A stretch of DNA of 64,000 nucleotides from Dehalococcoidia bacterium (GCA_034420475.1 DAOULH010000025.1:1593-65592), one strand, 5' to 3'; positions 294 to 41,532 are shown, counted from the first letter of the stretch. Made by a program: numbers and translations. The notes: generated by a model from the letters alone, not told the origin.

Positions 294-986
294 TTGGAGT
301 CCATGGTTCCCACCGGTTCATCTCAACGCGTTTCCGCGACCGTGATCAGCGCCGTGATGGAGTGTCATGATGAGGCTTTTCTCCTCCTGGATAGCCTGGT
401 TTGGGGATCGGGCTTCGCCCGGTTCGAGGAAGCCTATGACCGCTGGCGGGATTTATCCGACCGCTGGCGGGCTTACCAGGATTCCAGAGGTCACGCGAAA
501 TTCGATGCCGCGCCTGGTTCGGGTCCTGTGGCCGAACGGGCGGGGGATTTCGCCGGCGATGGGGCCGGCGCGGAGTCGGCGGCTGAGGTTGGAGCGGTTC
601 GGCACCTGGTTGAACTGATGAGACTGGGAGACGAAGGGAAAATACGTTATTTGACCAATGCGGGGATGGCGGAGTCGGAGCTGGTCCGTTTGGTCGAGTT
701 GGCGATGGCCTGGAGGCATGATGCAGGGTTAGGGCGGCTGGGCGAACTGTCGAGGTTTGCGGCGGAGTCGGAGCTGGGCGCCGGGTGGGTGCTGCAGACG
801 TGGATAGACGCCGAGCACCGGGTCAGGCTGGCGCTGTTGTTAGAGGGTGAGGCCGTTGGGGAGTTGGGTCTGGCGGTCGCGCACGCGGTGTCCCGTACCG
901 CGGAGGTGGTGTTTGCGTCGTATTGGTTCGATCTGTACCGCGACGATAGCGAGATTGTTCTGGTGCCCGGCGATGAGCTGGAGTAG
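294..986 (+). CDS. hypothetical protein, 230 aa, no recognisable domain
   Basis: Longest ORF here. AAGGAGG at 280-286 lies 7 nt upstream of the TTG at 294 (ATG at 303 is an alternative start). Product is helical-looking and Ala/Glu/Leu/Arg-rich. Confidence 0.5.
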   Translation: MESMVPTGSSQRVSATVISAVMECHDEAFLLLDSLVWGSGFARFEEAYDRWRDLSDRWRAYQDSRGHAKFDAAPGSGPVAERAGDFAGDGAGAESAAEVGAVRHLVELMRLGDEGKIRYLTNAGMAESELVRLVELAMAWRHDAGLGRLGELSRFAAESELGAGWVLQTWIDAEHRVRLALLLEGEAVGELGLAVAHAVSRTAEVVFASYWFDLYRDDSEIVLVPGDELE

Positions 987-29252: not shown

Positions 29253-31862
29253 ATGATGGGATCGCTCACAGAAACCGATCTTCCATCCAGTCGGGATGCT
29301 CTGTCGGCGTTGTCTTTAGCGGCGGCGGTCGTGATCGCTGGGATTGTTCCAATATGGCTGGTCCAGATGGAGCCCATCGGTGGATTAGATAGGTCGGGTG
29401 GGTCTGCCGCATTACTCGGTGGTGTGCTGGGTGCCCAGGCTGCCATAGCGGCGCTGACGCTTGCCGTCACGCTTTTTGTGATGCAGGGAGTCAGCAATAG
29501 GAGAGATGCCGACGACAGGGTTTACGCTGAGTACGTTCGCCGGTCGTGGGTGCGTCCCATCTTCTGGGTCAGCATAGGTGCCGTTGCCACTACCGGTGCC
29601 GTGTTGACCGCGGTGGAGTTGGTCAGTGTATCTGAAACCACAGCTGCGATTGCACCTGGGATGCCCAATCTTGCCTTGATAGCTGTGGTTTGTTTAGCGG
29701 TGAATCTGGTTGCTGCCCTTTCGCTCTTCGAGCGGGCGATTAGGCTCGCGGAGCCGGAGCATTGGCGACGGCTACGACTGGATGTGAACAAGCGTGATGT
29801 TCGTGAGGCGGTGCGCGTGTTTCTGGGTCGGGCCGAACGTGCAGCCACGTCGCAGGCGAACAGTGAGGCTGACTTGAGCACCTGGTTTCCCGATCTGGGT
29901 GAGGGATCTGCGGATGAGGCGGTCCGAGCGTTGTTGGATGACGCTCGGAGGGCAATGGATGAACGTAGGCACGGAGAGGTTCAGCGAACGTTGAGTTCAA
30001 TTCAAGAACTTGTCTCGTACGCGGTTGACGAAATGGACAAAACCGGTGTGGTATGGGGCGTTCATGGGTCTCGAGCTGAGTGGCCACCGCTGCGGGAATT
30101 GGGTAGGAATCTGTTCTCATTCAGAGAGGAGGTGATCCGCACGGACAACCGGGAGTTCTTGGACGAGTTGCTGAAGCTGGATCTGTGGCTGGTACGTACG
30201 GGGTTCAGGCGATCTATCGGGGAATTGGTCACGGCTGGTCTCGATGGTTACAGGTGGAACTACCGGATAGGGACTCGGATCGGTAGTCCAGATACCCAGA
30301 GGGTCCTTCGCGATGGCGTGTTACCTCATTTACTCATACTAACTCTCGTTGGCGAAACCGAGGAGTTGTTGTCGTTCTTAGTCGCGGTGGTACGACACGT
30401 AAGCAACGTGTTGTCTGATGCGTTGCATTCTGATCGCGGCGATGACTTTCGATGGGTGCAACGGGAGTTCGGAAGGATATTGTCCGACATCCTCGAATAT
30501 AATGGCAGATATGATTCACCTTTTGGGAGAGAATCGGAAATGTCCGAGGGCGTAGCCCAGGAATACCGCATCGCGTTGATGGGGTTGGGCGGACGCGCAG
30601 TGCTTCTTGCAGAGTCGGGTGAACTATCTGACGCCGAACCATATTTGGACGCTGCGCGTGCTGTGTATGGAGACTCTGAATGTCTCGCTGGCGACATTTC
30701 GGCCGCTCTCGCTATGGAGCGATCTGATGCACACTCTCAGTGGCAGGATTGGGAAGTTCCAGAGCATATTGGCTCTTGGTCTGGCATGGTGTCGGCGGAT
30801 CGCTACCCGCTGACGTGTTTTGCTGTGCTGCTGATGGAGCGTACCTACGACGCGTCTCTGGCCCTAAATTTGCGTGGAGATGCAAGGCACACCTTGGATT
30901 GGTTCAACGCGAACTCTGAGCGGCTGGAACGGTTTGTCGTCGAAACTCCATCGGCCAGTGCTGAGCAGCGACGTCAATTCTCGACCGAAGTCCTGGAGAA
31001 GGCAGCCCGCCGCGATGAAGTGGAAGAGGACCTCGAAATTATCGGTCGGCCGCTCAGCACTGAGAAACTAAACAATTTGCGGTCTGGGGTTCAGGCTGGT
31101 TGGATTAGATCTGGTGTCGTGGAGAGGTTGTTTGATGAGGCGAAAGCGGTTCTGCGCGTTGATGGTGATGGGGTCCTGGCGCCCAACGAGCGAAGCATTC
31201 AGGATTGGTTTGGCAAAGGTCATTTTGTCGACGCGAAAGACTATGACCGCATCGGTTACTCGGCTGTCGGCGGGGAATTATGGGGCCAAGGGTTGTCTCG
31301 GGACGCTGTGCCACTTTTGTGGGAAGCGCTGGCGGGCGCTCCACGTATGTTGGCACCTTTGGATTCCGCTGAATCGCTTTTCCAAGCGATTGAAAGTGCT
31401 GCAAGCGACCTCGGTGTAGACAGCAATTTAGCTGTTGTGTTGGGAGGAAACATGGCCGGTCTCTTACACCACGCCCGAGTGGGTCTGGTGGAGGGATATG
31501 AGCCATTGAGGCGGTCGCCGGACTCGGATCCGTCAGTGGAGTTAGCCCGTTATCACGGTTACCCAATTCTGCGAGGACCGGAGAGTGGCAAACCTGAGGC
31601 TTGCGTCGTCGACGTGGGCACATGGGGAAACTACGTTCGCGCGCCGTTCGACGATGGAGAGGAATTACGCGTCGACGTCGAAGTAATCTCCCAGGAGCAG
31701 GCGCGCGAAATTTTGGATGGAAACCCCGACTATGGGGCCGACCAACTGGACGATGAGTCCCGGGTGCGGAAGATTCAGACTATGGTGTTGGTGAAAGTCG
31801 GCGTCCGACATGGTTTCCGGGTTGTTGATCCCACGCGAGCGCGAACCATCGTGTCCGAATAA
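29253..31862 (+). CDS. large membrane protein of unknown function (about 869 aa, four predicted TM helices then a ~680-aa soluble region)
   Basis: Hydrophobic segments: ALSLAAAVVIAGIVPIWLV, ALLGGVLGAQAAIAALTLAVTLFV, IFWVSIGAVATTGAVLTAV, LALIAVVCLAVNLVAALSLF. No P-loop or nuclease motif seen. The frame is open from 28917, so the start is uncertain. Confidence 0.6.
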   Translation: MMGSLTETDLPSSRDALSALSLAAAVVIAGIVPIWLVQMEPIGGLDRSGGSAALLGGVLGAQAAIAALTLAVTLFVMQGVSNRRDADDRVYAEYVRRSWVRPIFWVSIGAVATTGAVLTAVELVSVSETTAAIAPGMPNLALIAVVCLAVNLVAALSLFERAIRLAEPEHWRRLRLDVNKRDVREAVRVFLGRAERAATSQANSEADLSTWFPDLGEGSADEAVRALLDDARRAMDERRHGEVQRTLSSIQELVSYAVDEMDKTGVVWGVHGSRAEWPPLRELGRNLFSFREEVIRTDNREFLDELLKLDLWLVRTGFRRSIGELVTAGLDGYRWNYRIGTRIGSPDTQRVLRDGVLPHLLILTLVGETEELLSFLVAVVRHVSNVLSDALHSDRGDDFRWVQREFGRILSDILEYNGRYDSPFGRESEMSEGVAQEYRIALMGLGGRAVLLAESGELSDAEPYLDAARAVYGDSECLAGDISAALAMERSDAHSQWQDWEVPEHIGSWSGMVSADRYPLTCFAVLLMERTYDASLALNLRGDARHTLDWFNANSERLERFVVETPSASAEQRRQFSTEVLEKAARRDEVEEDLEIIGRPLSTEKLNNLRSGVQAGWIRSGVVERLFDEAKAVLRVDGDGVLAPNERSIQDWFGKGHFVDAKDYDRIGYSAVGGELWGQGLSRDAVPLLWEALAGAPRMLAPLDSAESLFQAIESAASDLGVDSNLAVVLGGNMAGLLHHARVGLVEGYEPLRRSPDSDPSVELARYHGYPILRGPESGKPEACVVDVGTWGNYVRAPFDDGEELRVDVEVISQEQAREILDGNPDYGADQLDDESRVRKIQTMVLVKVGVRHGFRVVDPTRARTIVSE

Positions 31863-32385
31863 ATGGTTCCCGATTTGCAGGCGTCAATTCGGCATTCGTC
31901 GCCGATTCTGGGGGCGTGCCGCTGGAGGCCAGTCGTTGGTCGTTATGCTGGTGGGTGATTACGCGAATGCTATCAGAACTCGTGGGTGTTTCTGTCTTGG
32001 GAGCGTGGTCCTCGTTGACCCGATCCGGGCAGTCTGCGGTGCTGATTTCGCAGAAACGGCACTCTTGCGAGCTGGGAGCGTGGCTCGGGGGCCTGTCCGC
32101 AGCCGGGTGTCGGATCAGGGATGAGAGGTGCTCGACGAACGTGGTGGGTTATACGATCTCGCCGGATATCTAGGCGTCGCGGTACTGGTGCTAGCAGCAA
32201 TCGTCAGGCATTTTGCTGCTCTGACTCGAGGTCGTTTCCGAGGGAAATGTCCACAGCCTTCCGGGATGCGTCCTGGTAGATTGTTCGGAGCGCCGGAATG
32301 GGTTCGAGCTCGCTCTGCCAGAATGGGAAACGGCCCAATTGCTGGGGCAGGGCAGTATGCAATCCGGGTGCCGGGATGGCGCCGT

Positions 32386-33039
32386 TCAGAAATCGCTGGT
32401 CCGTTCTTGGGAAACCTCGTTGGGTTGGTCGACGCGTTCGGGACAATCGGCCGCCGTGATGTCGCAGAAGCGACACTCCTGGAAGCTGGGCGTCGGCTTC
32501 GGCGGGTCAGGGGCGGCGAGGCGGCGGATGGTCGAGCCGAGTTGGTTGATGAACTGACCGGTCAGGGCGCCCCTGGGCACGCGGGCGATGCGGGAGGGAT
32601 AGACGACCTCGCCGGACAGCCTGGCGTGACGGAAGTGCTCTGGAATGGCCTTTGGGAGGGCGTACTGGTAGATCTGGAGTTGGACTGTGTGCCAGGGCTG
32701 TTCCTGGCCGGTTTTGACGTCGATGATGAGGGCGTCGTTGCCGCGGTCGACGATGAGGTCGGGCCGGCCGGCGAGAGTGGCGGTGCGGCCACGGAGCTGG
32801 AAGCTGTTCTGGGCTTCGACGTAAACGTCGCAGCCGCGTTCTTGCCACTCGGCTTTGGTCTGATTCAACAGTGCGGTGTGGTCCAGCAGCCACTGGGATT
32901 GGTCAAAGTCGCGGGGCGGCCTGTTCCAGTGCTGGTAGTGGGCTTTGAACCAGATGGCCCACTCACAGGACCGTTCGCCGGTGAGGAGGCGGGGCAGCCA
33001 GGTGGCCCAGATGTAGGGGTGTTCGCGTTGTTGGGGCAC
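32386..33039 (-). CDS. Cas4/RecB-like PD-(D/E)xK nuclease with Fe-S-type cysteines, not linked to any CRISPR
   Basis: GRPDLIV...ALIIDVKTG...QLQIYQYAL (D, DxK, QxxxY). One N-terminal Cys (ERSCEW) plus C-terminal CRFCDITAADC. Confidence 0.75.
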   Translation of the reverse strand: MPQQREHPYIWATWLPRLLTGERSCEWAIWFKAHYQHWNRPPRDFDQSQWLLDHTALLNQTKAEWQERGCDVYVEAQNSFQLRGRTATLAGRPDLIVDRGNDALIIDVKTGQEQPWHTVQLQIYQYALPKAIPEHFRHARLSGEVVYPSRIARVPRGALTGQFINQLGSTIRRLAAPDPPKPTPSFQECRFCDITAADCPERVDQPNEVSQERTSDF

Positions 33040-33132
33040 TGCACGGCTCCGGTAGGGGGAGTAGCCGTGGTCGGCTCCATTGGATGATATGTGCTGAAGA
33101 TTCAGGCGGGCAATGGCCGGCTGTCATCAAAT

Positions 33133-34257
33133 TCAAATTGAGTGAGAGTCGGCGTCCTGCGGGCTCAGGCTGACGGTGCGGTCTGGGTTGATGACCAGGG
33201 TGTCTCGGTCTGCTTCCTTATAGAGTGCGGTAATCAGGGCGCCGTCGGTGACCTCGAACCGTTTGCGGATATGCTCTTGCAATTCGGTGATTGGAAGGGG
33301 GTGCGGTGATTGTTCAAGGAGGTGGAAAACCTCGTCTGAGAGGGTGAGGCGTAGGCCACGTTGATTGCCGGGATCGGAGTGGCCTACTGGCCATGATGAA
33401 AGGCCGTACTTGCTGGGGCCGACCCATTTGAAGTCTGGTTTGTTCTGGAGGGTACCCAGGACTTGCCACCAGGTGATTGGTCGTTCGAAGCCGTCGTCTC
33501 TGGCGATTTGGTTGGCGATCTGTAACGTCTCTTTGACGGTGAGACAACGGTTGGCGTGTTCCAGGGCCTTGGCGGTGTAATGAACGGTGAAGTGAGGGTC
33601 TGAGGCGAGGCGGATATCCCAGCCCATTACCGGGTGATACCGGCCGGTTGCCTGTAGGGGAACGATTGTGGTCATGGCCTGGATGTGCAGGGCGAGGTTG
33701 AGTTTGGGCCACTGGGTGAATGCATCGTGCCAGTGGGTCAAGTGTCGGCGGATGTGATGGGGAGTAGCGCCGTTGCGGTGTTGGCCGGCGATCTGGCGCG
33801 CGTCGCGGGCCAGACGACGTAGGGATGGCCGTGGTTGCGCTGGTTTGGGCATGGCGTCGAGAATCGCCAGGCCCCAGGATTCTTCATTGGAGTGGATGGC
33901 GCCGATATTGGTGAGTTGCCGGATTACGGCGGACTGTTGTTTGGGGCTAAGCCTGATCCGCTGTAGCGCGAGCTCAAGGCCGGCCATGTTGGTTATTTCA
34001 TCCGCGTTGACGATGGCTGCGCAAACGGGATTCCGTGTGTCCCGGCGGGCCTGGTCGAGTAGTCGTGTCAACCCTTGGTTAGCAACCTGGCGGGCGCGTT
34101 CCCGGGTGATGCCGTGATGTTGGGCGATTTCGACAAGGGACTGGCGGTCGTGGAGTGATGCGTGCACGATGTCTCTTTGGTTCTGAGTCAGATTGGTCTG
34201 CGCGTCGTACCAGGCGGTAACGAACTGGTCGAGGTCGGCAAAGATTCTGTGGTCCAT
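33133..34257 (-). CDS. sigma-70 region 4-like HTH protein with HARE-HTH-like winged helix, paralog 1 (374 aa)
   Basis: LTQNQRDIVHASLHDRQSLVEIAQHHGITRERARQVANQGLTRL is region-4-like. DFKWVGPSKYGLSSW is HARE-HTH-like. The start is taken at the conserved MDHRIF, and the upstream part of the ORF overlaps a terminator. Confidence 0.7.
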   Translation of the reverse strand: MDHRIFADLDQFVTAWYDAQTNLTQNQRDIVHASLHDRQSLVEIAQHHGITRERARQVANQGLTRLLDQARRDTRNPVCAAIVNADEITNMAGLELALQRIRLSPKQQSAVIRQLTNIGAIHSNEESWGLAILDAMPKPAQPRPSLRRLARDARQIAGQHRNGATPHHIRRHLTHWHDAFTQWPKLNLALHIQAMTTIVPLQATGRYHPVMGWDIRLASDPHFTVHYTAKALEHANRCLTVKETLQIANQIARDDGFERPITWWQVLGTLQNKPDFKWVGPSKYGLSSWPVGHSDPGNQRGLRLTLSDEVFHLLEQSPHPLPITELQEHIRKRFEVTDGALITALYKEADRDTLVINPDRTVSLSPQDADSHSI

Positions 34258-34324
34258 GGTTCGACGGTATCCGTGATTTGGGAATCCGGTTGGCGGAAAT
34301 AGAGTGGTTTGGGGTTTGGGCAAC

Positions 34325-34347
34325 AAAAAAGCCGCCTGTGGGCGGCT
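34325..34347 (-). terminator. rho-independent terminator after paralog 2
   Basis: Minus strand reads AGCCGCCCACAGGCGGCT followed by TTTTTTG. Confidence 0.7.
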
Positions 34348-34397
34348 CCGTTGGATGATATGCGCTGAAGACTCAGCCGGGCAATGGCCGGCTGTCA

Positions 34398-35522
34398 TCA
34401 AATGGAGTGAGGGTCGGCGTCCTGCGGCTTCAGGCTGACCGTGCGGTCCGGGTGGATGGTGAACCGCTGTCCGCCGCGCTTTCCTGCCAAAGCGTAGTAA
34501 ACCGCACCGGGGGTGACGTTGAATCGTCCGAGGATATGTTGCTGGATGTCGTCGTACGCAACCGGTTCAGTTGACTTGAGGAGCAGGTAAACGATCTCCT
34601 GGGTGATCTGGGTTCGCTCGGAGGTGGGTTGGCTGTCGGAGGAATGGCCGACGTCCCATGATTTGAGCCCGTAGGTGCTGGGCCCGGCCCATTTGTAGCC
34701 CTGGTGGGTGTGGATGGTCCCGGCGACCTGCACGTTGGTGTAGGTGCGGTCGATGCCGTCGAGTCGGGCTAAGCGGTTGGCGGATTGAACGATTTCCGGG
34801 ATGGTGAGAGGTTGGCCGGCTTTGTCCAGGGCCCGGCTGATGTAGTGTTTGGTGAAGATCGGGTCGTTCTTGATGGGTATGGTCCAACCTTTTATGGGGT
34901 GGAAGGCGCCGGTCTTTGGATCGGTAGCGGTGCCGGTCATGGCCTTGATGTGGAGAGCGATGTTGAATCTGGGCCACTGGGCGATGGTGTCGTGCCATTG
35001 GGTGAGGTGAGCACGGAGGTGACGGGGGGTAATGCCGCGGTGGTGGGTTCCGGCTACTTGGCGTGCATCATGGGCGAGGCGACGGAGGGATGGGCGCGGG
35101 CGTCTGGGTTTGTGCATGGTGTCCAGGATCACCAGGGCCCAGGAAGTTTGGTCGGGCGAGATGGCTCCGATGTTGGTGAGCTGCTGGATGACGGTTTCTG
35201 ATGCCTTGCCGGAAAGGCTGCGTGGCCGTAGTGCGATCTCTAGTCCTGCCCTATCGGCTATCTTTTCGGCTTTGGCAACAGCGATGCGTACGGGATTGCG
35301 GGGGTCCTTGCGAGCCTCGCGGAGCAGGCGTCTGGCTCCTTTCTCGGCGATCTGTCGCACGTATTCGCGGGTGATGCCGTATCGTTGAGCGATTTCGGCC
35401 AACGTCTGTCGGTCGTGCAGTGATGCGTGGACGATGTCCCTTTGCATCTGAGTGAGATTGGCCTGTGCCTCGTACCAGGCGGTGACGAACTGGTCGAGGT
35501 CGGGAAAGATTCTGGAGTCCAT
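34398..35522 (-). CDS. sigma-70 region 4-like HTH protein with HARE-HTH-like winged helix, paralog 2 (374 aa)
   Basis: Collinear with paralog 1 from MDSRIF to the shared C-terminus RTVSLKPQDADPHSI. Same length. Confidence 0.7.
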   Translation of the reverse strand: MDSRIFPDLDQFVTAWYEAQANLTQMQRDIVHASLHDRQTLAEIAQRYGITREYVRQIAEKGARRLLREARKDPRNPVRIAVAKAEKIADRAGLEIALRPRSLSGKASETVIQQLTNIGAISPDQTSWALVILDTMHKPRRPRPSLRRLAHDARQVAGTHHRGITPRHLRAHLTQWHDTIAQWPRFNIALHIKAMTGTATDPKTGAFHPIKGWTIPIKNDPIFTKHYISRALDKAGQPLTIPEIVQSANRLARLDGIDRTYTNVQVAGTIHTHQGYKWAGPSTYGLKSWDVGHSSDSQPTSERTQITQEIVYLLLKSTEPVAYDDIQQHILGRFNVTPGAVYYALAGKRGGQRFTIHPDRTVSLKPQDADPHSI

Positions 35523-35670
35523 GGTTCGATGGTATCCGGGTTGTGGAAATGGGGTTGCGAATGAATCGTTGTCAAGGAAGTGGTTGTCGGTGGAGGCGCC
35601 GGGAGGGGTCGATGCGGTATGGGTTCCGGTGTCGGGATGACACGAGAAGAGGCCGACGGTTGGAGGCATC

Positions 35671-35694
35671 AAAAAAAGCCGCACTTGGCGGCTT
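35671..35694 (-). terminator. terminator vestige upstream of paralog 2
   Basis: Minus strand reads AAGCCGCCAAGTGCGGCTT followed by TTTTTT. Resembles the 34325-34347 terminator and its flank (GGATG). Confidence 0.5.
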
Positions 35695-35900
35695 GGATGT
35701 GGTTCCCGGTAGCGGGAGTCGATTTCAGGGTTTCCCTGAATCGGAGACTGTGAGCGTGGCGGAGGTCGAGGAACCCGGTGTTGGGGTTAGGTTGGAAACC
35801 TGAGAGGTGGTGGTGAACGCGGTTTCGCGTTTGGGTTTAGGCGGTGTAAAACGTGTCAAAAATTGCCACGTATTCAGAAGGAAATACGTCATTATTGGCG

Positions 35901-35929
35901 TTGACAAGGCGTCAAGGCTCCAGTAGGAT
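35901..35929 (+). promoter_or_regulatory. sigma-70-type promoter candidate (TTGACA-17 nt-TAGGAT) overlapping a TTGACnnnnnGTCAA palindrome
   Basis: Read directly. About 75 nt upstream of the ATG at 36007. A second small inverted repeat ACGTATT...AATACGT lies just upstream. Confidence 0.5.
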
Positions 35930-36006
35930 ACGCGCAGTAGAAAAGCCCGGGGGTAGCCGGAAAGTCGGGCCCTGGGCTTCCAGAACGACGGAGGCTACTC
36001 GGAGAG

Positions 36007-36582
36007 ATGGAAAATTCTGGGGATGAAAGCGGTCTCTCGACAGACGAAGAAAGGCTGCGTGAGCACGAACTGATTATGCGGGACATGGCATGGACGGCGC
36101 TCGCGCGGATTAACGAGCATCTGCGGGATCTGGAGATGTGGGTGAATCTGTACGAGATGTATGACGGGATTCTGGGTGGCCTCACGCATCTCACATCCGC
36201 TGATGCTGAGAGGAAAAACCTGGCGGAGGAAATAGCAAAATGCAGGAATCAGCGTGAGGGAGTAAGGCGTGTCGCCGAATTGCAGGGTGGGACGGTGCGC
36301 GTGCGGGATGTGGCTCGACTGATCCATGAGTCTGCTCTGAGCAGAGGAAGTCTGTCGAGCGTAAGATCTGCGTTGCTGAGGTACGTTAAAGGCAGCGACG
36401 AATGGGAGGAGATGGGAGACGGGTACTTCCGTCTGGTGGGTAGGGGGCGGGTGGACGGTCCCAGACAAGGAGGATTGCCGTCGTTGCCGCCGAGATTGTC
36501 GCCAGTGATGGCAAAAGCCAGGGCTTTACGGCAGGAGGCGGAAGTCACGGTCGGTGGGGACGATGCGGCCGACGATGTCTAG
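36007..36582 (+). CDS. hypothetical protein with C-terminal winged-helix-like segment, 191 aa
   Basis: GGAGG lies 12 nt upstream. VRDVARLIHES...LLRYVKGSDEWEEMGDGYFRLVG resembles the HARE-HTH-like ending of the two paralogs. Confidence 0.5.
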   Translation: MENSGDESGLSTDEERLREHELIMRDMAWTALARINEHLRDLEMWVNLYEMYDGILGGLTHLTSADAERKNLAEEIAKCRNQREGVRRVAELQGGTVRVRDVARLIHESALSRGSLSSVRSALLRYVKGSDEWEEMGDGYFRLVGRGRVDGPRQGGLPSLPPRLSPVMAKARALRQEAEVTVGGDDAADDV

Positions 36583-36886
36583 GGGACCAGGGTTGGAATT
36601 GAGGTCTTTGCACATGATGGAGGGACGAAAGCGGCTTCGGGTGACGCATTTGATGACACGCTACGGGTTAGGTTGGGTGGCGTGAAATGGTATAGTGTGA
36701 CCGACATGCCAACGGTGTGTACGTGTCTGGAAAGCACGCTTTGGAAGCGCATTCGGCGGCGTTTTGACCGCATTGAGGAGGTGCCTGTGATCTGAAATGT
36801 CGGAATCACCCTGGTGGATTGGTCCGCTGGATCAGCGGAATGTACCGGGGAGATCGAGCACGATGACACGATATCGGAGGTGATCC

Positions 36887-38099
36887 GTGAGGGATCAAAA
36901 AAATCCGGGCCGTGAGTGGCCCGGGAAATCCGAGCCGCGGGAGATTGCGACGCCGCCCGCAGCTCGTGACCAAACCAAGGCGTCTCCCCAGCCGGTCCGT
37001 TTTAATGATACCGCACCCAATTCTGTGGTGCAAATCGCCGGCGGTGACCGGTTTGGGCAATCTGAGAGTGACGGCGGTTCTGGAGATTCGGTTGGTAACC
37101 CGGTGATGGTGCGCGCGGCGGTTTACGCGCGCACCGCGACCCCGAAGGGATCCGGTGAGGCCGGCCTGGATATGCAGGTGGCACGATGCCTGCGGTACGC
37201 GGCGGAACACCAATACGACGTGTCGCCAGAGCATATCTGGAGGGTAGTGGGATCCGGCGTGGATCCGCGCCTTGATGGTCTGACCGAGTTGATGGAGGTG
37301 ATAGACGCTGGCGAGCTGGACGTGGTGATGGTGTGTGGAGTCGGCAGGCTGTCACGGTCCATGGTCCGGTTGGTGTTCGTGGCCCAGTTGATGAGGGCCA
37401 AAGGCGTGCACGTAGTGGACGTGGGGGAGAGTGGTGGGAGACATCTGACGTCTCCTGTGGAAGTTGCAAACGCTGGACGATCGGGATCCGACGATCGGTG
37501 GTCTTTTGAAAATGTCACGACAGTCTTGGACCGGTAAGTGGCCCGTTTCAAGCACAAGGATACGGGTCCGCCGGCTGAAACGGTGATCGTTTCGAGGAGT
37601 GACAATCATGGAAGAGACGCGAGATAACACGGATCGAGCCATGCGCGCGAAGAGGAAGCGTGTGTCGGAAGAGATGAAGCCGGTGGTGGTTGGCGGTCCC
37701 GGTATCTACGGGTACGACTGCGACCCGGTGACCGGGGAGCGCACGATAAATGATGAGGAAGCGCTTGTCGTGCGGCGAATCTTCGAGTGGGACGCAGCGG
37801 GGTGGACCTGCAAAGCGATTGCTCAGGAGCTCAACGAACGGGGTGTGCCGACGCGGAGCGGGGCTCCGTGGAGCGCACGAATGGTGAGGTGCGCCTTGAG
37901 GCACAGGCCATACACCGGCAGATGGCGGTACGGCAAGTACCGTTGCTCGGGCGTGTCCCCCAGGTCGAAGAATGCACAAGGAGGGTGGATAGATATTGAG
38001 GTGGGCGGTCTGAGGATCGTCAGTGACGAGGCATTCGAGAACGCTGCGAGGCGTGGCGTATCCCGCGCGATACGGCGGGGGCGCCATGACGTTCAGTGA
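36887..38099 (+). pseudogene. decayed large serine recombinase (resolvase domain and recombinase domain in two frames; no zinc ribbon or coiled coil)
   Basis: The first ORF has AAVYARTAT where the intact paralog has YRRVSD, so the catalytic Ser position is Ala. The second ORF (37599-38099) has GIYGYDCDPVTGERTINDEEALVVRRIFEW, matching GIYGYDYDTVTQIRTVNEVEAAVVVMMFEW of the intact gene. Confidence 0.7.
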
Positions 38100-38708
38100 A
38101 CAAGACGCCTACGACCCCTGCTGTGGCTCTGCAGCGACGGCAAAAAAAGCATCCTTGGTGGAAAGGAGGTGATGGTGAACTGAAACTTTCGGCATCGTGG
38201 CGGCGTGGTATTCGGAATGCATGGTCGCGGCGATGCGATATGGAGAGAACGCAAAGTTGGAGGTGATCCGATATGGATCGAATGACGTCGTTGGACCGCA
38301 AGCGGTCCGCAGATAAAGCGGCACCGCGGGAGATCGAAGAGTCCACCGCGGCGCCAGACCCGGACGAGGCTCAACTCGGACCGGCTACAGATGATGTTAA
38401 CAGCACTGGAGGGGAATTGTCCACCGGGGTTGAGGACGTCGATGGATGGAATGAGGAGGGGCGCGATGTGGTGGTGGATAGCGGTCGGTACCGAGACCAG
38501 GGAATGACGGTTCGCGTGGTCGTGTTGGGTGGTGTCCCTGATCGACGGCGATGGTCCTGGCTGCAAAGGAGTGTGCAGCGCGGGTAGAAGGAAATCGGGC
38601 GGTGATGCCGGTTGCGCTGGAAGTTCAGTGTTGCGGTTTTCACCGCCCGGTCGAAAAGGTGCGACAGCCTCGCAATGTTCGGGGGCAAATGGCTTTAGGA
38701 GGAATCCG

Positions 38709-40397
38709 ATGCCTGGAAAGAACGAATTCAACGATGACGTGACGACTGGGGCGGGATCGCCGGCTGACCCTGACGAAGGGCCGGTGGTGAAGTACGCAGA
38801 GTTGGTCTTGCCGGTAGAGGAAGGGGGGCGGCAACCGTTTCTGGGGAACATGGCAGGGTATAGGCGCGTGAGCGACCCGAATCAAGCGAGGGACGGGACA
38901 TCCTTGGATACCCAGGGAGAAGAGCTGATGCGGTATGCGGCCGATCAGGGCTACCAGATGCGCCCTGAGTGGCTCTTCACGGATGTGGTGACTGGGGCTT
39001 CTACCGTGAGACGTGGATTCACGGAATTGCTGGAGTTCTTGGATACGGGCGTGATCGACGCGGTGAGCGTCTATGACCCGGACAGATTGGCGAGGGACCC
39101 GCTGGTGCTGCTCACGCTGAGCAACGAGATTTTGGAAAGGGGGGTGTCCCTGGAATTTCTGCGAGGTCCGTCGGGCGATAGCGACGAGGCCCAGATGATG
39201 AGGGTAATCATGGCCTATGCGGCCAAGAGAGAGCGTGCGCAGATCGCGGAGCGTACGATGCGTGCGAAGAGGCGGGTTGCCCGAAACGGGCGGATGCCGG
39301 TCGGTGTTGGCGGGAACGGGATTTACGGGTACGACTACGACACGGTGACGCAGATACGCACGGTGAACGAGGTGGAAGCTGCGGTGGTGGTGATGATGTT
39401 CGAGTGGTACGTGGGGGGTTGGTCAACCTACGCGATTTCGGAGGAATTGAACCGACGCGGACTGGTGACGAAGCGGGGAAAACTATGGCATCCCCGAACG
39501 GTGCGGAACATTCTGACGCATACCTCGTATGTGGAATGGGACGTGTACGGGAAATACCGTTGCCAGGTCTGGTTTGAGAACCAGGGCAAGCCCAATGAGA
39601 AGAAGCGCATCAAGCGTACGCTGAGGCCGGAAAGCGAGTGGGAGTGGATCTACGGATTCTCTCCGAGGATCACGGAAGATGATTTGTGGGGAGCTGCGCA
39701 AGCTCGTTTGGCGATGCCGAGTGTGCGGACGGGTAACCAGGATCTGTACCTGTTGACCGGGTACACGCGGTGCAGTGTGTGTGGTCAGCCGGTGAACGGC
39801 GGCAGCAAGTACAACGGAAGGCGGAGGTATCGTTGCCAGGGTACTCAGAAGCGGGGTAAATTGATTCCGAAGACGTGCAGCGCGTCATACATTCCTGCGG
39901 ACGAGTTGGAGGCAGCGGTGTGGGGCGGCCTGGTGAACGCTCTGAAGAATCCCGTGGTGCTGATGGCGGATTTGGAAGAACACTTTGATACTGGTGGGGG
40001 CGATGTGGGCCCGGAGATCCGAGACTTGAAGAAGGCTGTTGGTGAGTGTGAGAAGCAGGAGTCCAGGCTGAGGGAGGTGTTTTCGAGGGATCATGAATAT
40101 GAGCTGGATCAGCTGATGAGGGATCTGGCGCCGATCAGGGTAATGCGGTCGGAGCACCAGCGTGAGCTGGAGAGGTTGGAGAGGCAACGGGAAGTTGCAG
40201 GCTCTGCCGACGAGTGCAAGGCGCTGGTGCAAGCCAAACTGGAGGAACTGTCGGTGGGTCTGGAAGAGCTGGACTTCGATGGTAAGCGTCAGGTGATGGG
40301 TGCGCTGGACATGAAGGTGAAAGCAGTGCTGGGTGACGTGTCGATGTCGATCGTGGTGGGATTTAATCCCACTACCATTGGACGTACATCGGCATGA
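38709..40397 (+). CDS. large serine recombinase (integrase)
   Basis: Has YRRVSDPNQ with the catalytic Ser, a recombinase domain, the zinc ribbon CSVCGQPVNGG...YRCQG and a C-terminal coiled coil. AGGAGG at 38697-38702 lies 6 nt before the ATG at 38709 (ATG at 38850 is an alternative). The last 26 nt overlap dnaN. Confidence 0.85.
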   Translation: MPGKNEFNDDVTTGAGSPADPDEGPVVKYAELVLPVEEGGRQPFLGNMAGYRRVSDPNQARDGTSLDTQGEELMRYAADQGYQMRPEWLFTDVVTGASTVRRGFTELLEFLDTGVIDAVSVYDPDRLARDPLVLLTLSNEILERGVSLEFLRGPSGDSDEAQMMRVIMAYAAKRERAQIAERTMRAKRRVARNGRMPVGVGGNGIYGYDYDTVTQIRTVNEVEAAVVVMMFEWYVGGWSTYAISEELNRRGLVTKRGKLWHPRTVRNILTHTSYVEWDVYGKYRCQVWFENQGKPNEKKRIKRTLRPESEWEWIYGFSPRITEDDLWGAAQARLAMPSVRTGNQDLYLLTGYTRCSVCGQPVNGGSKYNGRRRYRCQGTQKRGKLIPKTCSASYIPADELEAAVWGGLVNALKNPVVLMADLEEHFDTGGGDVGPEIRDLKKAVGECEKQESRLREVFSRDHEYELDQLMRDLAPIRVMRSEHQRELERLERQREVAGSADECKALVQAKLEELSVGLEELDFDGKRQVMGALDMKVKAVLGDVSMSIVVGFNPTTIGRTSA

Positions 40398-41532
40398 CCA
40401 CATGTACGTACCGGTCGGAGTCGGCGGGCCGGAACACGCCGGGGCTGGAGGAGTTGGTCACCTCGATGGCGACCTTGCCCCGTCCCAGCACGTTCACGAT
40501 GTCCTGGAGGTAGCGGACGTTGAAGGCGATCTTGGCGTCCGCGCCGTCCAACTGATCGATGTCCAGCTCGTCCAGGCTGTCGCCCACCTCCTCGGAACGC
40601 GCCGAAACCTTGAGCTGGCCGCCGTCGCTGGCTTCCTGGGGCATCATCTCCAGCCGGACGATGTTGCTGCCGTCACGGGCGAAGACCGACGCCGACTGCG
40701 TGGCGCGCTTCAGGTCGTCCAGTTCCATCACGGCTCGGGTCTCGTATCGCTCGGGGATGAGTTGCTCGTAGTTGGGGAAACTGCCCTGGAGCAGTTGGGA
40801 AACGATCTCAACGTGTTCCAGCTTGAACATGGCCTGCCCGCGGTCGGGGGACAGGGTCATGTGAACGGGACTGCTCTGTTCCGAAGCCAGACGCTGCACT
40901 TCCTGCATAGTTCGCGCCGGAACGATTACCTTGATTTCCTCTTCCACCGACTGCGAAATCTGGCCGGAATAGACTGCCAGACGGAAGCCGTCGGCGGCGG
41001 CCATCACCACGCTGGATTCGCTGAGCTTGAGTTCCACCCCGGTCAGCACCGGGCGCGATTCGTCGGTCGCGGCCGAGAATGCCACCAGGCTGATCCCGGA
41101 GCGCAGGACGCTGGGGTCGATGTCAATGGCGGTGCCGGTATCGACCTGGGGAACGGGCGGGAAGTCTGCGGCGTCGGCTCCGTTGATATGGGTCACGGCG
41201 CGACCGCAGGCCAGGTGCAAAACGCTGCCCCCGCTGGCCGGCCCGTCAGCGTCGGGTCCGCCCAGATCGAGGTCAATCCGGTCACTGGGACGGGTGTTGA
41301 CCCAGTCGGCCAGGAGGCGGTGCGGAACCGTTATCGCTCCTTCTTCCTCGATCATCGCGCCGATCCACGTGGTGATGGCGATTTCGAGGTTGGTGGCGGA
41401 CAGCATCAGCATGCCCTGGTCGGTCCGGAGCAGGACGTTTTGGGTTATGGGCAGCGTCGATCTGCTGGCCACCGCCCGGCTGACTACGCTGAGGCCACGG
41501 GCCAGATTCTCCTGAAGGCACGACAGTTTCAT
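40372..41532 (-). CDS. dnaN: DNA polymerase III beta subunit (sliding clamp)
   Basis: MKLSCLQENLARGLSVVSRAV...TNLEIAI and a C-terminal VVMPM motif. Length is 386 aa. Confidence 0.95.
   Translation of the reverse strand: MKLSCLQENLARGLSVVSRAVASRSTLPITQNVLLRTDQGMLMLSATNLEIAITTWIGAMIEEEGAITVPHRLLADWVNTRPSDRIDLDLGGPDADGPASGGSVLHLACGRAVTHINGADAADFPPVPQVDTGTAIDIDPSVLRSGISLVAFSAATDESRPVLTGVELKLSESSVVMAAADGFRLAVYSGQISQSVEEEIKVIVPARTMQEVQRLASEQSSPVHMTLSPDRGQAMFKLEHVEIVSQLLQGSFPNYEQLIPERYETRAVMELDDLKRATQSASVFARDGSNIVRLEMMPQEASDGGQLKVSARSEEVGDSLDELDIDQLDGADAKIAFNVRYLQDIVNVLGRGKVAIEVTNSSSPGVFRPADSDRYVHVVMPMYVQW

Follow-up and report, generated by a model that had tools for sequence, protein, structure and literature searches.

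Introduction

The integration module of the ssrA-specific islands of Dehalococcoides, with its genes DsiB and DsiA (McMurdie et al. 2011, PMC3146451), appears from sequence comparison to be the closest described case to the locus reported here. This locus lies in a 64,000-nucleotide (nt) stretch of DNA, hereafter the window, from a Dehalococcoidia metagenome-assembled genome (GCA_034420475.1, DAOULH010000025.1:1593-65592; G000 in our locus labels). In it, two tandem paralogous genes for proteins of 374 amino acids (aa), paralog 2 followed by paralog 1, precede a gene for a Cas4-like nuclease. The original prediction, made from the sequence of the window, took the three genes to be a linked module. 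We hold with moderate confidence that they form instead the lineage-specific backbone of an integrative island, which is placed by a large serine recombinase (LSR) at the 3' end of dnaN and carries exchangeable anti-phage cargo, the 374-aa proteins being regulators and the nuclease an independent solo Cas4-like enzyme.

The ssrA islands belong to the same class of bacteria. There, as here, a serine recombinase of ~540-560 aa inserts at the 3' end of a single-copy essential gene, a smaller serine recombinase-like gene lies alongside (DsiA beside DsiB there, a split gene here), and a syntenic integration module with signs of accretion adjoins exchangeable cargo. The two differ in their target, which is dnaN rather than ssrA in the window, and no direct-repeat pair of attachment (att) sites was found here. 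The ssrA islands carry RecF-like, ParB-like and Mom-like genes, whereas the present locus carries p191 (a 191-aa protein gene), arrays of sigma-region-4/winged-helix genes and the Cas4-like nuclease. The cargo also differs, being anti-phage defence here and reductive dehalogenases there.

Solo cas4 genes are monophyletic in many Chloroflexi, mostly vertically inherited and repeatedly recruited by mobile elements, with ratios of non-synonymous to synonymous substitution (dN/dS) of 0.06-0.18 (Hudaiberdiev et al. 2017, PMC5704561). Like these solo-Cas4 and mobile-element Cas4 proteins and their pfam12705 relatives, the window nuclease is a small four-cysteine PD-(D/E)xK enzyme encoded away from CRISPR-cas, with the same pattern of inheritance and dN/dS. 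Unlike them, it lies below the curated Cas4 cut-offs and fits PF12705 better, and its multiple copies, conserved leader and position at the cargo boundary are features not described in PMC5704561.

A further comparison is with chromosomal-island and defence-locus regulators. Stl of the Staphylococcus aureus pathogenicity islands (SaPI) and regulators of the BrxR/CapW type are helix-turn-helix (HTH) proteins whose genes mark the margin of the island or defence locus, run divergently from those for integration or excision, and vary greatly between related elements. The 374-aa genes resemble them in edge position, divergence from integrase genes and variability, but no sequence relationship is known and a WYL or sensor domain is missing from the 374-aa proteins. 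Such regulators are not known to occur as tandem multi-copy arrays.

Results

Seven loci with 374-aa genes were compared, the window and L004-L009, which are not mutually independent, all deriving from a small number of related metagenome populations. All seven share one layout. One strand carries the LSR, small genes and a p191 homolog (at the equivalent position in all six related loci); the opposite strand carries one to four 374-aa genes, then the nuclease and then variable cargo. The final 25 nt of the window LSR overlap the 3' end of dnaN, the two genes being convergent, and the junction falls equally at the dnaN stop codon in L005, L007, L008 and L009, making five of the seven loci. The cargo left of the module in the window comprises a DpdE/DrmD-like helicase, a DrmMI-like methylase, a DEAD/MrfA-type helicase, an Mrr-helicase-methylase fusion and GmrSD; across the seven loci it includes SNF2/DUF3670 with SWIM, type I restriction-modification, PemK-like pairs and VWA genes.

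Linkage of the three genes was not borne out beyond this one island lineage. Among 401 Dehalococcoidia genomes from 223 genera, nuclease homologs, mostly single-copy, were present in 45 genomes and 19 genera, versus full-length 374-aa proteins in one genome and none of the other 400, where the broader family profile matched just region 4 of true sigma factors. Eighteen nuclease loci from other genera had no LSR, p191, 374-aa gene or dnaN within 10 kb. The 374-aa family itself is rare, forming 10 clusters among 5.8 billion proteins in one search and giving 31 representatives at E < 1e-30 among 1.84 billion in another. The contexts of three of these 31 remote full-length relatives, all at loci of the sub-family with an extra C-terminal XRE-type HTH, had neither a nuclease nor an LSR within 10 kb. 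The outcome largely agrees with the opposite possibility raised by the original prediction, namely mobile-element regulators with no nuclease linkage elsewhere, since the genes lie in a mobile-element backbone divergent from a serine recombinase operon. No PADLOC model fits the trio as a system, in keeping with the original prediction, which had matched it to no described one. The evidence supports a mobile-island backbone over an autonomous three-gene system. In the arrangement that we propose, the LSR would place the island at the dnaN 3' end, the defence cargo would be exchangeable, and the nuclease gene would mark the switch from conserved backbone to variable cargo. The features of the window are collected in Table 1.

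Table 1. Coordinates of the proposed backbone genes and associated elements in the window
Feature	Position	Strand	Remarks
Nuclease 3'-end pseudogene fragment	31996-32175 (G000:C25:33588-33767)	-	Residues 139-210, with stops; ~210 nt downstream of the intact gene
Nuclease	32386-33039	-	217 aa; iron-sulphur (Fe-S) PD-(D/E)xK, Cas4/AddB-like; GTG start 8 nt after GGAG
Nuclease leader	33040-33132	-	TTTGATGACAGCC motif 33131-33119; promoter-like TTGCCC-18-TATCAT 33113-33084; hairpin AGCCGACCACGGCT ~33076-33063
Paralog 1	33133-34257	-	374-aa open reading frame (ORF); architecture as paralog 2
Intrinsic terminator after paralog 2	34349-34328	-	9-pair stem and T run; -17.7 kcal/mol, z = -2.6
Paralog 2	34398-35522	-	374-aa ORF; Sigma70_r4 HTH and winged helices
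Divergent control region, paralog 2/recombinase operon	35523-36006		~92% identical to the L006 region
Terminator-like vestige, then TTTTTTTGATGCC	35694-35676	-	In the divergent control region
Promoter-like TTGACA-17-TAGGAT	35901-35929	+	In the divergent control region
p191, gene 1 of the recombinase operon	36007-36582	+	191 aa; no Pfam, NCBIfam or PHROG hit
Second, split serine recombinase-like gene	36887-38099	+	Resolvase domain 36887-37537; Recombinase domain 37599-38099
LSR	38529-40397	+	Resolvase, Recombinase and Zn_ribbon_recom domains
Host dnaN	40372-41532	-	All three DNA_pol3_beta domains; 3' end is the integration site

The two 374-aa ORFs were confirmed upstream of the nuclease on the same strand. 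Both begin MD(S/H)RIF and they align without gaps at 55% identity across 374 residues (BLASTP, E = 2e-138), the DNA duplication that holds them having a period of 1265 nt. The predicted sigma-70 region-4-type HTH passed the Pfam gathering cut-off (Sigma70_r4, PF04545, 24.1 bits) in both, with 30.9 bits for paralog 1 and 37.8 bits for paralog 2. Over 21 family members, Sigma70_r4 was matched by 15, KORA by three (best E = 2.8e-7) and HARE-HTH by one. The N-terminal domain is a genuine sigma-70 region 4.2 which keeps the -35-reading helix, because the family profile aligns its recognition helix, GITRER(V/A)RQ, with GLTRERVRQI of RpoS/RpoH. Matches to sigma region 2 or 3 numbered zero in both paralogs and the 21 family members, so by this measure the 374-aa proteins are not sigma factors; against the sigma-factor models of NCBIfam the paralogs scored 16-24 bits, with cut-offs of 43-617.

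The HARE-HTH-like winged helix that had been proposed from the motif F/YKW.GPS.YGL.SW stood in part. The motif, written here as F/YKW..G..YGL..W, maps to the wing of a winged helix at residues 221-290 of an AlphaFold2 model, one of the 21 aligned relatives matches HARE-HTH (PF05066) at E = 2.3e-6, and two homologs carry a precomputed PF05066 hit; the window paralogs themselves, at 16.3 bits, fall short of the 25.9-bit cut-off. The model, built for paralog 1 from an alignment of 16 family members, has a predicted local distance difference test score (pLDDT) of 70.8. It comprises a four-helix sigma-4 domain at residues 9-71 (pLDDT 80-93), a helical linker, and winged helices at ~147-215 (poorly resolved, pLDDT below 60), 221-290 and 306-363 (both clearer). 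A Foldseek search with the whole protein gave no match at E <= 0.001; at the level of domains, matches at E > 0.01 were obtained to sigma region 4, KorA-operator structures, the RNA polymerase delta subunit, Rok and Z-alpha. Sequence and model together predict a rare new architecture, in which a sigma-70 region 4.2 HTH is joined to about three winged helices of the HARE-HTH type.

Each half of this architecture has described counterparts. Like sigma region 4 and the KorA/TrfB-type plasmid repressors, the 374-aa proteins carry in their N-terminal 70 residues a region 4.1-4.2 HTH with a TRERxRQ recognition helix, and both the KORA profile and KorA structures were among the matches; unlike KorA, they are ~300 residues longer, have three winged helices and occur in tandem mosaic arrays. 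With the HARE-HTH proteins, namely the delta subunit and the restriction endonuclease fusions, they share the fold match to delta and a winged helix closing with F/Y-K/R-W-x-G-x3-Y/F-G-L-x2-W, but their domains are not fused to a nuclease and number two to three per protein.

In PADLOC-DB 2.0 paralog 1 had no hit and paralog 2 matched solely mad1 (E = 0.003 over 24 residues). PHROG returned nothing for paralog 1 or p191, leaving a phage origin of either unsupported. Scans of IMG/VR viral contigs with the family alignment, and of JGI metagenomes with the XRE-bearing sub-family, found no relative.

We read the 374-aa proteins as putative island-encoded transcription regulators that would act as repressors or switches, much as KorA or the master repressors known from chromosomal islands do, because every recognisable part of them is a DNA-binding module, because the family includes members with matches to KorA and a sub-family with an additional XRE-type HTH, and because their genes point away from the recombinase operon. 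They would be expected to act on that operon and/or on the promoters of the nuclease and cargo. A palindrome after each paralog, CAGCCGG-N7-CCGGCTG, was considered as an operator and rejected, being degenerate in L004 and L005. Matches to Rfam over 31800-36700 were at chance level only.

The same domains could serve to bind RNA polymerase rather than specific operators, a sigma region 4 that contacts the beta-flap and -35 element being joined to delta-like HARE-HTH domains, and could in this way divert or slow transcription of the island by the host enzyme. Group 1/2 sigma factors have a nearly identical region 4.2 helix, and the fold matches include the delta subunit (RpoE-RpoC model 9a6y) and sigma-4/beta-flap chimeras. 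These matches, however, are at domain level with E > 0.01, proteins without sigma regions 2 and 3 cannot act as sigma factors, and the at least four allele types of the sigma-4 domain, 30-40% identical to one another, are hard to square with docking on a single invariant polymerase surface. We consider this explanation very unlikely.

Proximity to the LSR opens up another role for the 374-aa proteins, as recombination directionality or excision-control factors for the serine recombinase. Directionality factors of serine integrases are diverse and often unannotated, and the 374-aa genes always lie within ~2-3.5 kb of the LSR operon and divergent from it. Yet the same paralog types, at 92-96% identity, accompany LSRs that are only 31-50% identical to each other, dnaN-targeting LSR islands in another genus (G439) have no 374-aa proteins, and the remote relatives examined have no recombinase nearby, which makes such a role highly improbable.

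Regulation of the island remains our preferred function for these genes, and they have been maintained, to judge from their sequences. Orthologous 374-aa pairs have dN/dS of 0.29-0.53, and on this basis they are under purifying selection; paralog 1 is 93% identical to copy 4 of L004 (dN/dS 0.42) and paralog 2 is 93-96% identical to copies in L004, L005 and L006. Between other copies identity changes abruptly along the protein. In four successive segments, copy 2 of L004 is 93%, 58%, 48% and 90% identical to paralog 1, and copy 1 of L004 is 31%, 56%, 80% and 71% identical to paralog 2. Segment identities between paralogs swing from ~30% to ~95%, and the 374-aa proteins are therefore domain-wise mosaics, that is, combinations of discrete domain alleles; their arrays would evolve by exchange of whole alleles. 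Repeats of TTTGATG(A/C)C stand on both sides of each 374-aa unit, with a vestige upstream of the array. By analogy with the specificity subunits of type I restriction, the mosaics could be interchangeable subunits that recognise foreign sequences or modifications and recruit or license the Fe-S nuclease, array recombination reprogramming their range, in what would be a defence or island-exclusion system not described before; we regard this as distinctly unlikely.

The nuclease is a Cas4/AddB-like PD-(D/E)xK enzyme, in agreement with the original prediction. It passes PDDEXK_1 (PF12705) with 39.4 bits against a cut-off of 22 (E = 8.8e-10) and stays under the Cas4 cut-offs (PF01930, 15.2 bits vs 22.7; NCBIfam TIGR00372, 34.1 vs 65). 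Its translation contains the four cysteines C25, C189, C192 and C199 (C…CxxCx6C) and the catalytic residues D94, D107-x-K109 and Q120xxxY124, and its alignment to the Cas4 structures 4ic1 and 4r5q covers the D-x-K and QxxxY motifs. PADLOC gave Cas4 at 6e-9 and PHROG an exonuclease at 4e-9, the matches in PADLOC-DB 2.0 being limited to generic Cas4 and DruK nuclease models. The window has no CRISPR-like repeat array, and the genome's sole Cas1-like match, a weak one of 23.9 bits, lies on another contig (C67), so that the absence of CRISPR and cas1 nearby was upheld. The nuclease dN/dS, 0.09-0.21, falls within the range of solo cas4 (PMC5704561).

In a maximum-likelihood tree, the nuclease copies of other genera group by taxonomic family, while those of the window lineage form one group (support 86/87) in which the LSR-linked copies are a nested subclade. 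The window genome has three intact island-type copies and two fragments, and the complete genome G402 has six of each. Other copies of the lineage adjoin Uma2, PemK-like pairs, tyrosine-integrase islands, M78/DUF4411 pairs and a type IIG restriction-modification gene. At the 13 loci of other genera scanned for neighbouring families, the best 25 of 72 families included EF-G, ribosomal protein S7, LigD, ZnuA and ribonucleotide reductase. At two of these loci (L047/L048 or L051/L053) LigD primase-polymerase, phosphoesterase and ligase domains adjoin the homolog. The LigD neighbours hint at a role of the ancestral nuclease family in the repair of DNA ends. We suggest that a solo Cas4-like Fe-S family found across Dehalococcoidia multiplied in this lineage to give several island-borne copies, every one of them with a conserved leader of its own. 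The enzyme would serve the island by processing DNA ends, during recombination or the exchange of cargo, or would act as a stand-alone nuclease.

Several recurrent associations were seen around the nuclease copies. A nuclease paralog is paired with a conserved 249-aa protein of no known family at L006 4005-5487, L073 9894-11349 and L076 8017-9454, and a 181-aa protein with a PemK-like protein recurs as a pair downstream of further copies. On contig C51 of the window genome (L044, 6847-9833) a nuclease paralog, 60% identical, occurs with a Uma2 nuclease and a truncated XRE-bearing relative of the 374-aa family; this relative corresponds to residues 229-447 of P0143 at 88% identity, and the whole group adjoins a methyltransferase-HNH fusion and a 944-aa fn3 protein. 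A p191-like gene near another nuclease copy of G402 was set aside as uninformative, the interval having insertion sequence (IS) genes only.

A leader of ~110 nt is common to all island-type nuclease copies, with or without a 374-aa gene upstream. It runs in the order TTTTTGATGACAGC, a -10-like TAGACT or TATCAT, AGCCGACC(C)ACGGCT, ribosome-binding site and start codon. Similarity between nuclease paralogs stops at the stop codon or no more than ~20 nt beyond. The hairpin after paralog 1 indeed has no T run, as had been noted, and is shortened to 5 pairs. What had been taken for a terminator with a lost T run is nevertheless the ordinary nuclease leader, because nuclease paralogs with no 374-aa gene upstream have the same one. 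Its folding energy in the window is unexceptional (z = -1.0), and the hairpin as a conserved RNA structure was rejected, the energies being ordinary throughout the window clade (z ~0 to -1). Co-transcription of paralog 1 and the nuclease, which had been suggested, is possible given the missing T run; it is not required, since the leader has its own promoter-like site and occurs without a 374-aa gene.

The inner units of the arrays end similarly, closing with TTTGATGACAGCC (which contains the stop codon) followed by a promoter-like TTGCCC-18-TATCAT and a strong terminator. The terminator after paralog 2 is kept after the inner array copies in L004 and L005. The 3' flanks in the arrays look like leader copies whose hairpin may have become a true terminator.

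These sharp edges of homology, at the leader and the stop codon, are what would be expected if nuclease and leader were a selfish, homing-type or recombination-anchor unit that spreads between variable regions and into whose leader the HTH array was inserted. Several diverged intact copies and many 5' or 3' fragments per genome, and the TTTGATG(A/C)C repeats around every 374-aa unit with their upstream vestige, point the same way. In other genera, however, the gene is single-copy, clusters by taxonomic family and lies among housekeeping genes; neither target-site duplications nor pairs of intact and empty sites were found; and a dN/dS of ~0.1 is what ordinary cellular genes, and likewise solo cas4, typically show (PMC5704561). 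A selfish unit is in our judgement decidedly unlikely, and we continue to see in the nuclease an independently expressed solo Cas4-like enzyme that was probably recruited by islands.

The longest ORF of the LSR begins at 38529, and the 562-aa gene called on the L005 copy, 97% identical, implies a start near 38709. Identity of the LSR to the window copy falls from 97% in L005 to ~50% in L006-L008 and 31% in L004 and L009. The paralog types of L004, L005, L006 and L009 are 92-96% identical to those of the window and their nucleases 89-97%; L007 and L008 are more distant (nuclease 68%, paralog 55-57%). Modules have been reassorted between islands. The Recombinase-domain part of the split gene has 85% identity in L004 (6302-6961) and L005 (6288-6947), its frame being open; the gene may be a functional, DsiA-like partner of the LSR rather than debris.

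From position 1 to 40400 the window has a GC skew of +0.15 to +0.30 regardless of gene orientation, and most of the host flank (40400-64000) is near 0. The onset is sharp at the LSR/dnaN junction, and equally so at the LSR in L004, L007 and L008. In absolute terms the island skew in these four loci is 0.15-0.33, the G+T-rich strand being the + strand of the window. This skew suggests a history of asymmetric replication or of single-stranded transfer of the element.

At the LSR stop/dnaN stop (window 40370-40400) there is a core, ACCATTG(G/C)ACGTACAT(C/G/T)GGCAT, which is flanked in the window by the inverted repeat ACGTACAT...ATGTACGT. The core recurs in G401 at the end of a 34%-identical LSR abutting dnaN (C13:1383204). 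It occurs twice in G402 (C1:987184 and 834879), at the end of a 31%-identical LSR and once with no LSR nearby. These recurrent cores may be att half-sites or traces of island accretion. The window genome has no second copy of the junction sequence, and elsewhere there are just matches of 22-26 nt to the core, in G402. An empty dnaN site was not found among the sampled genomes, the closest of which has a dnaN of 63% identity; the dnaN site of G401 holds a different LSR. In two other genera (G439 and G447) an LSR likewise abuts the dnaN 3' end. Many fragmented assemblies of this order have dnaN ~0.1-1.5 kb from a contig end. Across this order, the dnaN 3' end may be a common hotspot of integration.

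Discussion

It remains to weigh what a three-gene defence or exclusion system would explain. In it, the shuffled proteins with sigma-4 and winged-helix domains would act as the specificity or sensor component, their HARE-HTH domains perhaps recognising modified DNA, and would direct or license the Cas4-like nuclease against foreign DNA. The genes sit in a defence island, no terminator separates the last paralog from the nuclease on their common strand in five loci, and domain-allele shuffling with tandem diversification resembles the evolution of specificity subunits. Fusions of restriction endonucleases to HARE-HTH are reported among the effectors of conflict systems (PMC12839542), and a further report (PMC11037411) concerns winged-helix-endonuclease fusions as type IV restriction enzymes dependent on N6-methyladenine (6mA). 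The linkage, however, is limited to one island lineage, with the nuclease in 45 of the 401 genomes and the HTH family in one. Nuclease paralogs in the same genomes have no intact HTH partner, and the three remote HTH relatives examined have no nuclease. The HTH gene and the nuclease are not adjacent in L007 and L008, where two to six unrelated genes (Uma2, ParE-like, HicB-like, TPR) intervene; furthermore, the nuclease leader has its own promoter-like site and no PADLOC system was hit by the HTH proteins. We therefore regard a defence system as unlikely and do not think that the nuclease is an effector steered by the HTH proteins. At present, no new immune mechanism is indicated.

A number of observations also weigh against the island-backbone interpretation. 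The run from the last 374-aa gene into the nuclease, uninterrupted by a terminator in five loci, is operon-like. Neither the far end of the island nor the second att site was found in the junction search. In G439, 40 kb beside a dnaN-targeting LSR contain none of the three genes, and since such islands in other genera do without them, the three are not needed for integration. One to four diverged tandem copies are not obviously needed by a regulator, and the structural model behind the architecture is of moderate quality, with an overall pLDDT of 70.8 and a first winged helix below 60. Finally, the shared layout of the seven loci may reflect a single ancestor and would then be uninformative on functional coupling.

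If the backbone interpretation is true, there would be a family of serine-recombinase islands which target dnaN and move anti-phage systems in uncultured Dehalococcoidia. The regulators of these islands would have a rare design, a captured sigma region 4.2 with about three HARE-type winged helices, that diversifies by whole-domain swaps in tandem arrays. Such swapping would be an unusual way for regulators to evolve, and a case of islands setting the specificity of immunity or expression. A vertically inherited solo Cas4-like gene would have been recruited and multiplied as the fixed boundary of variable cargo, and as a landmark this nuclease could help to find defence hotspots in these genomes.

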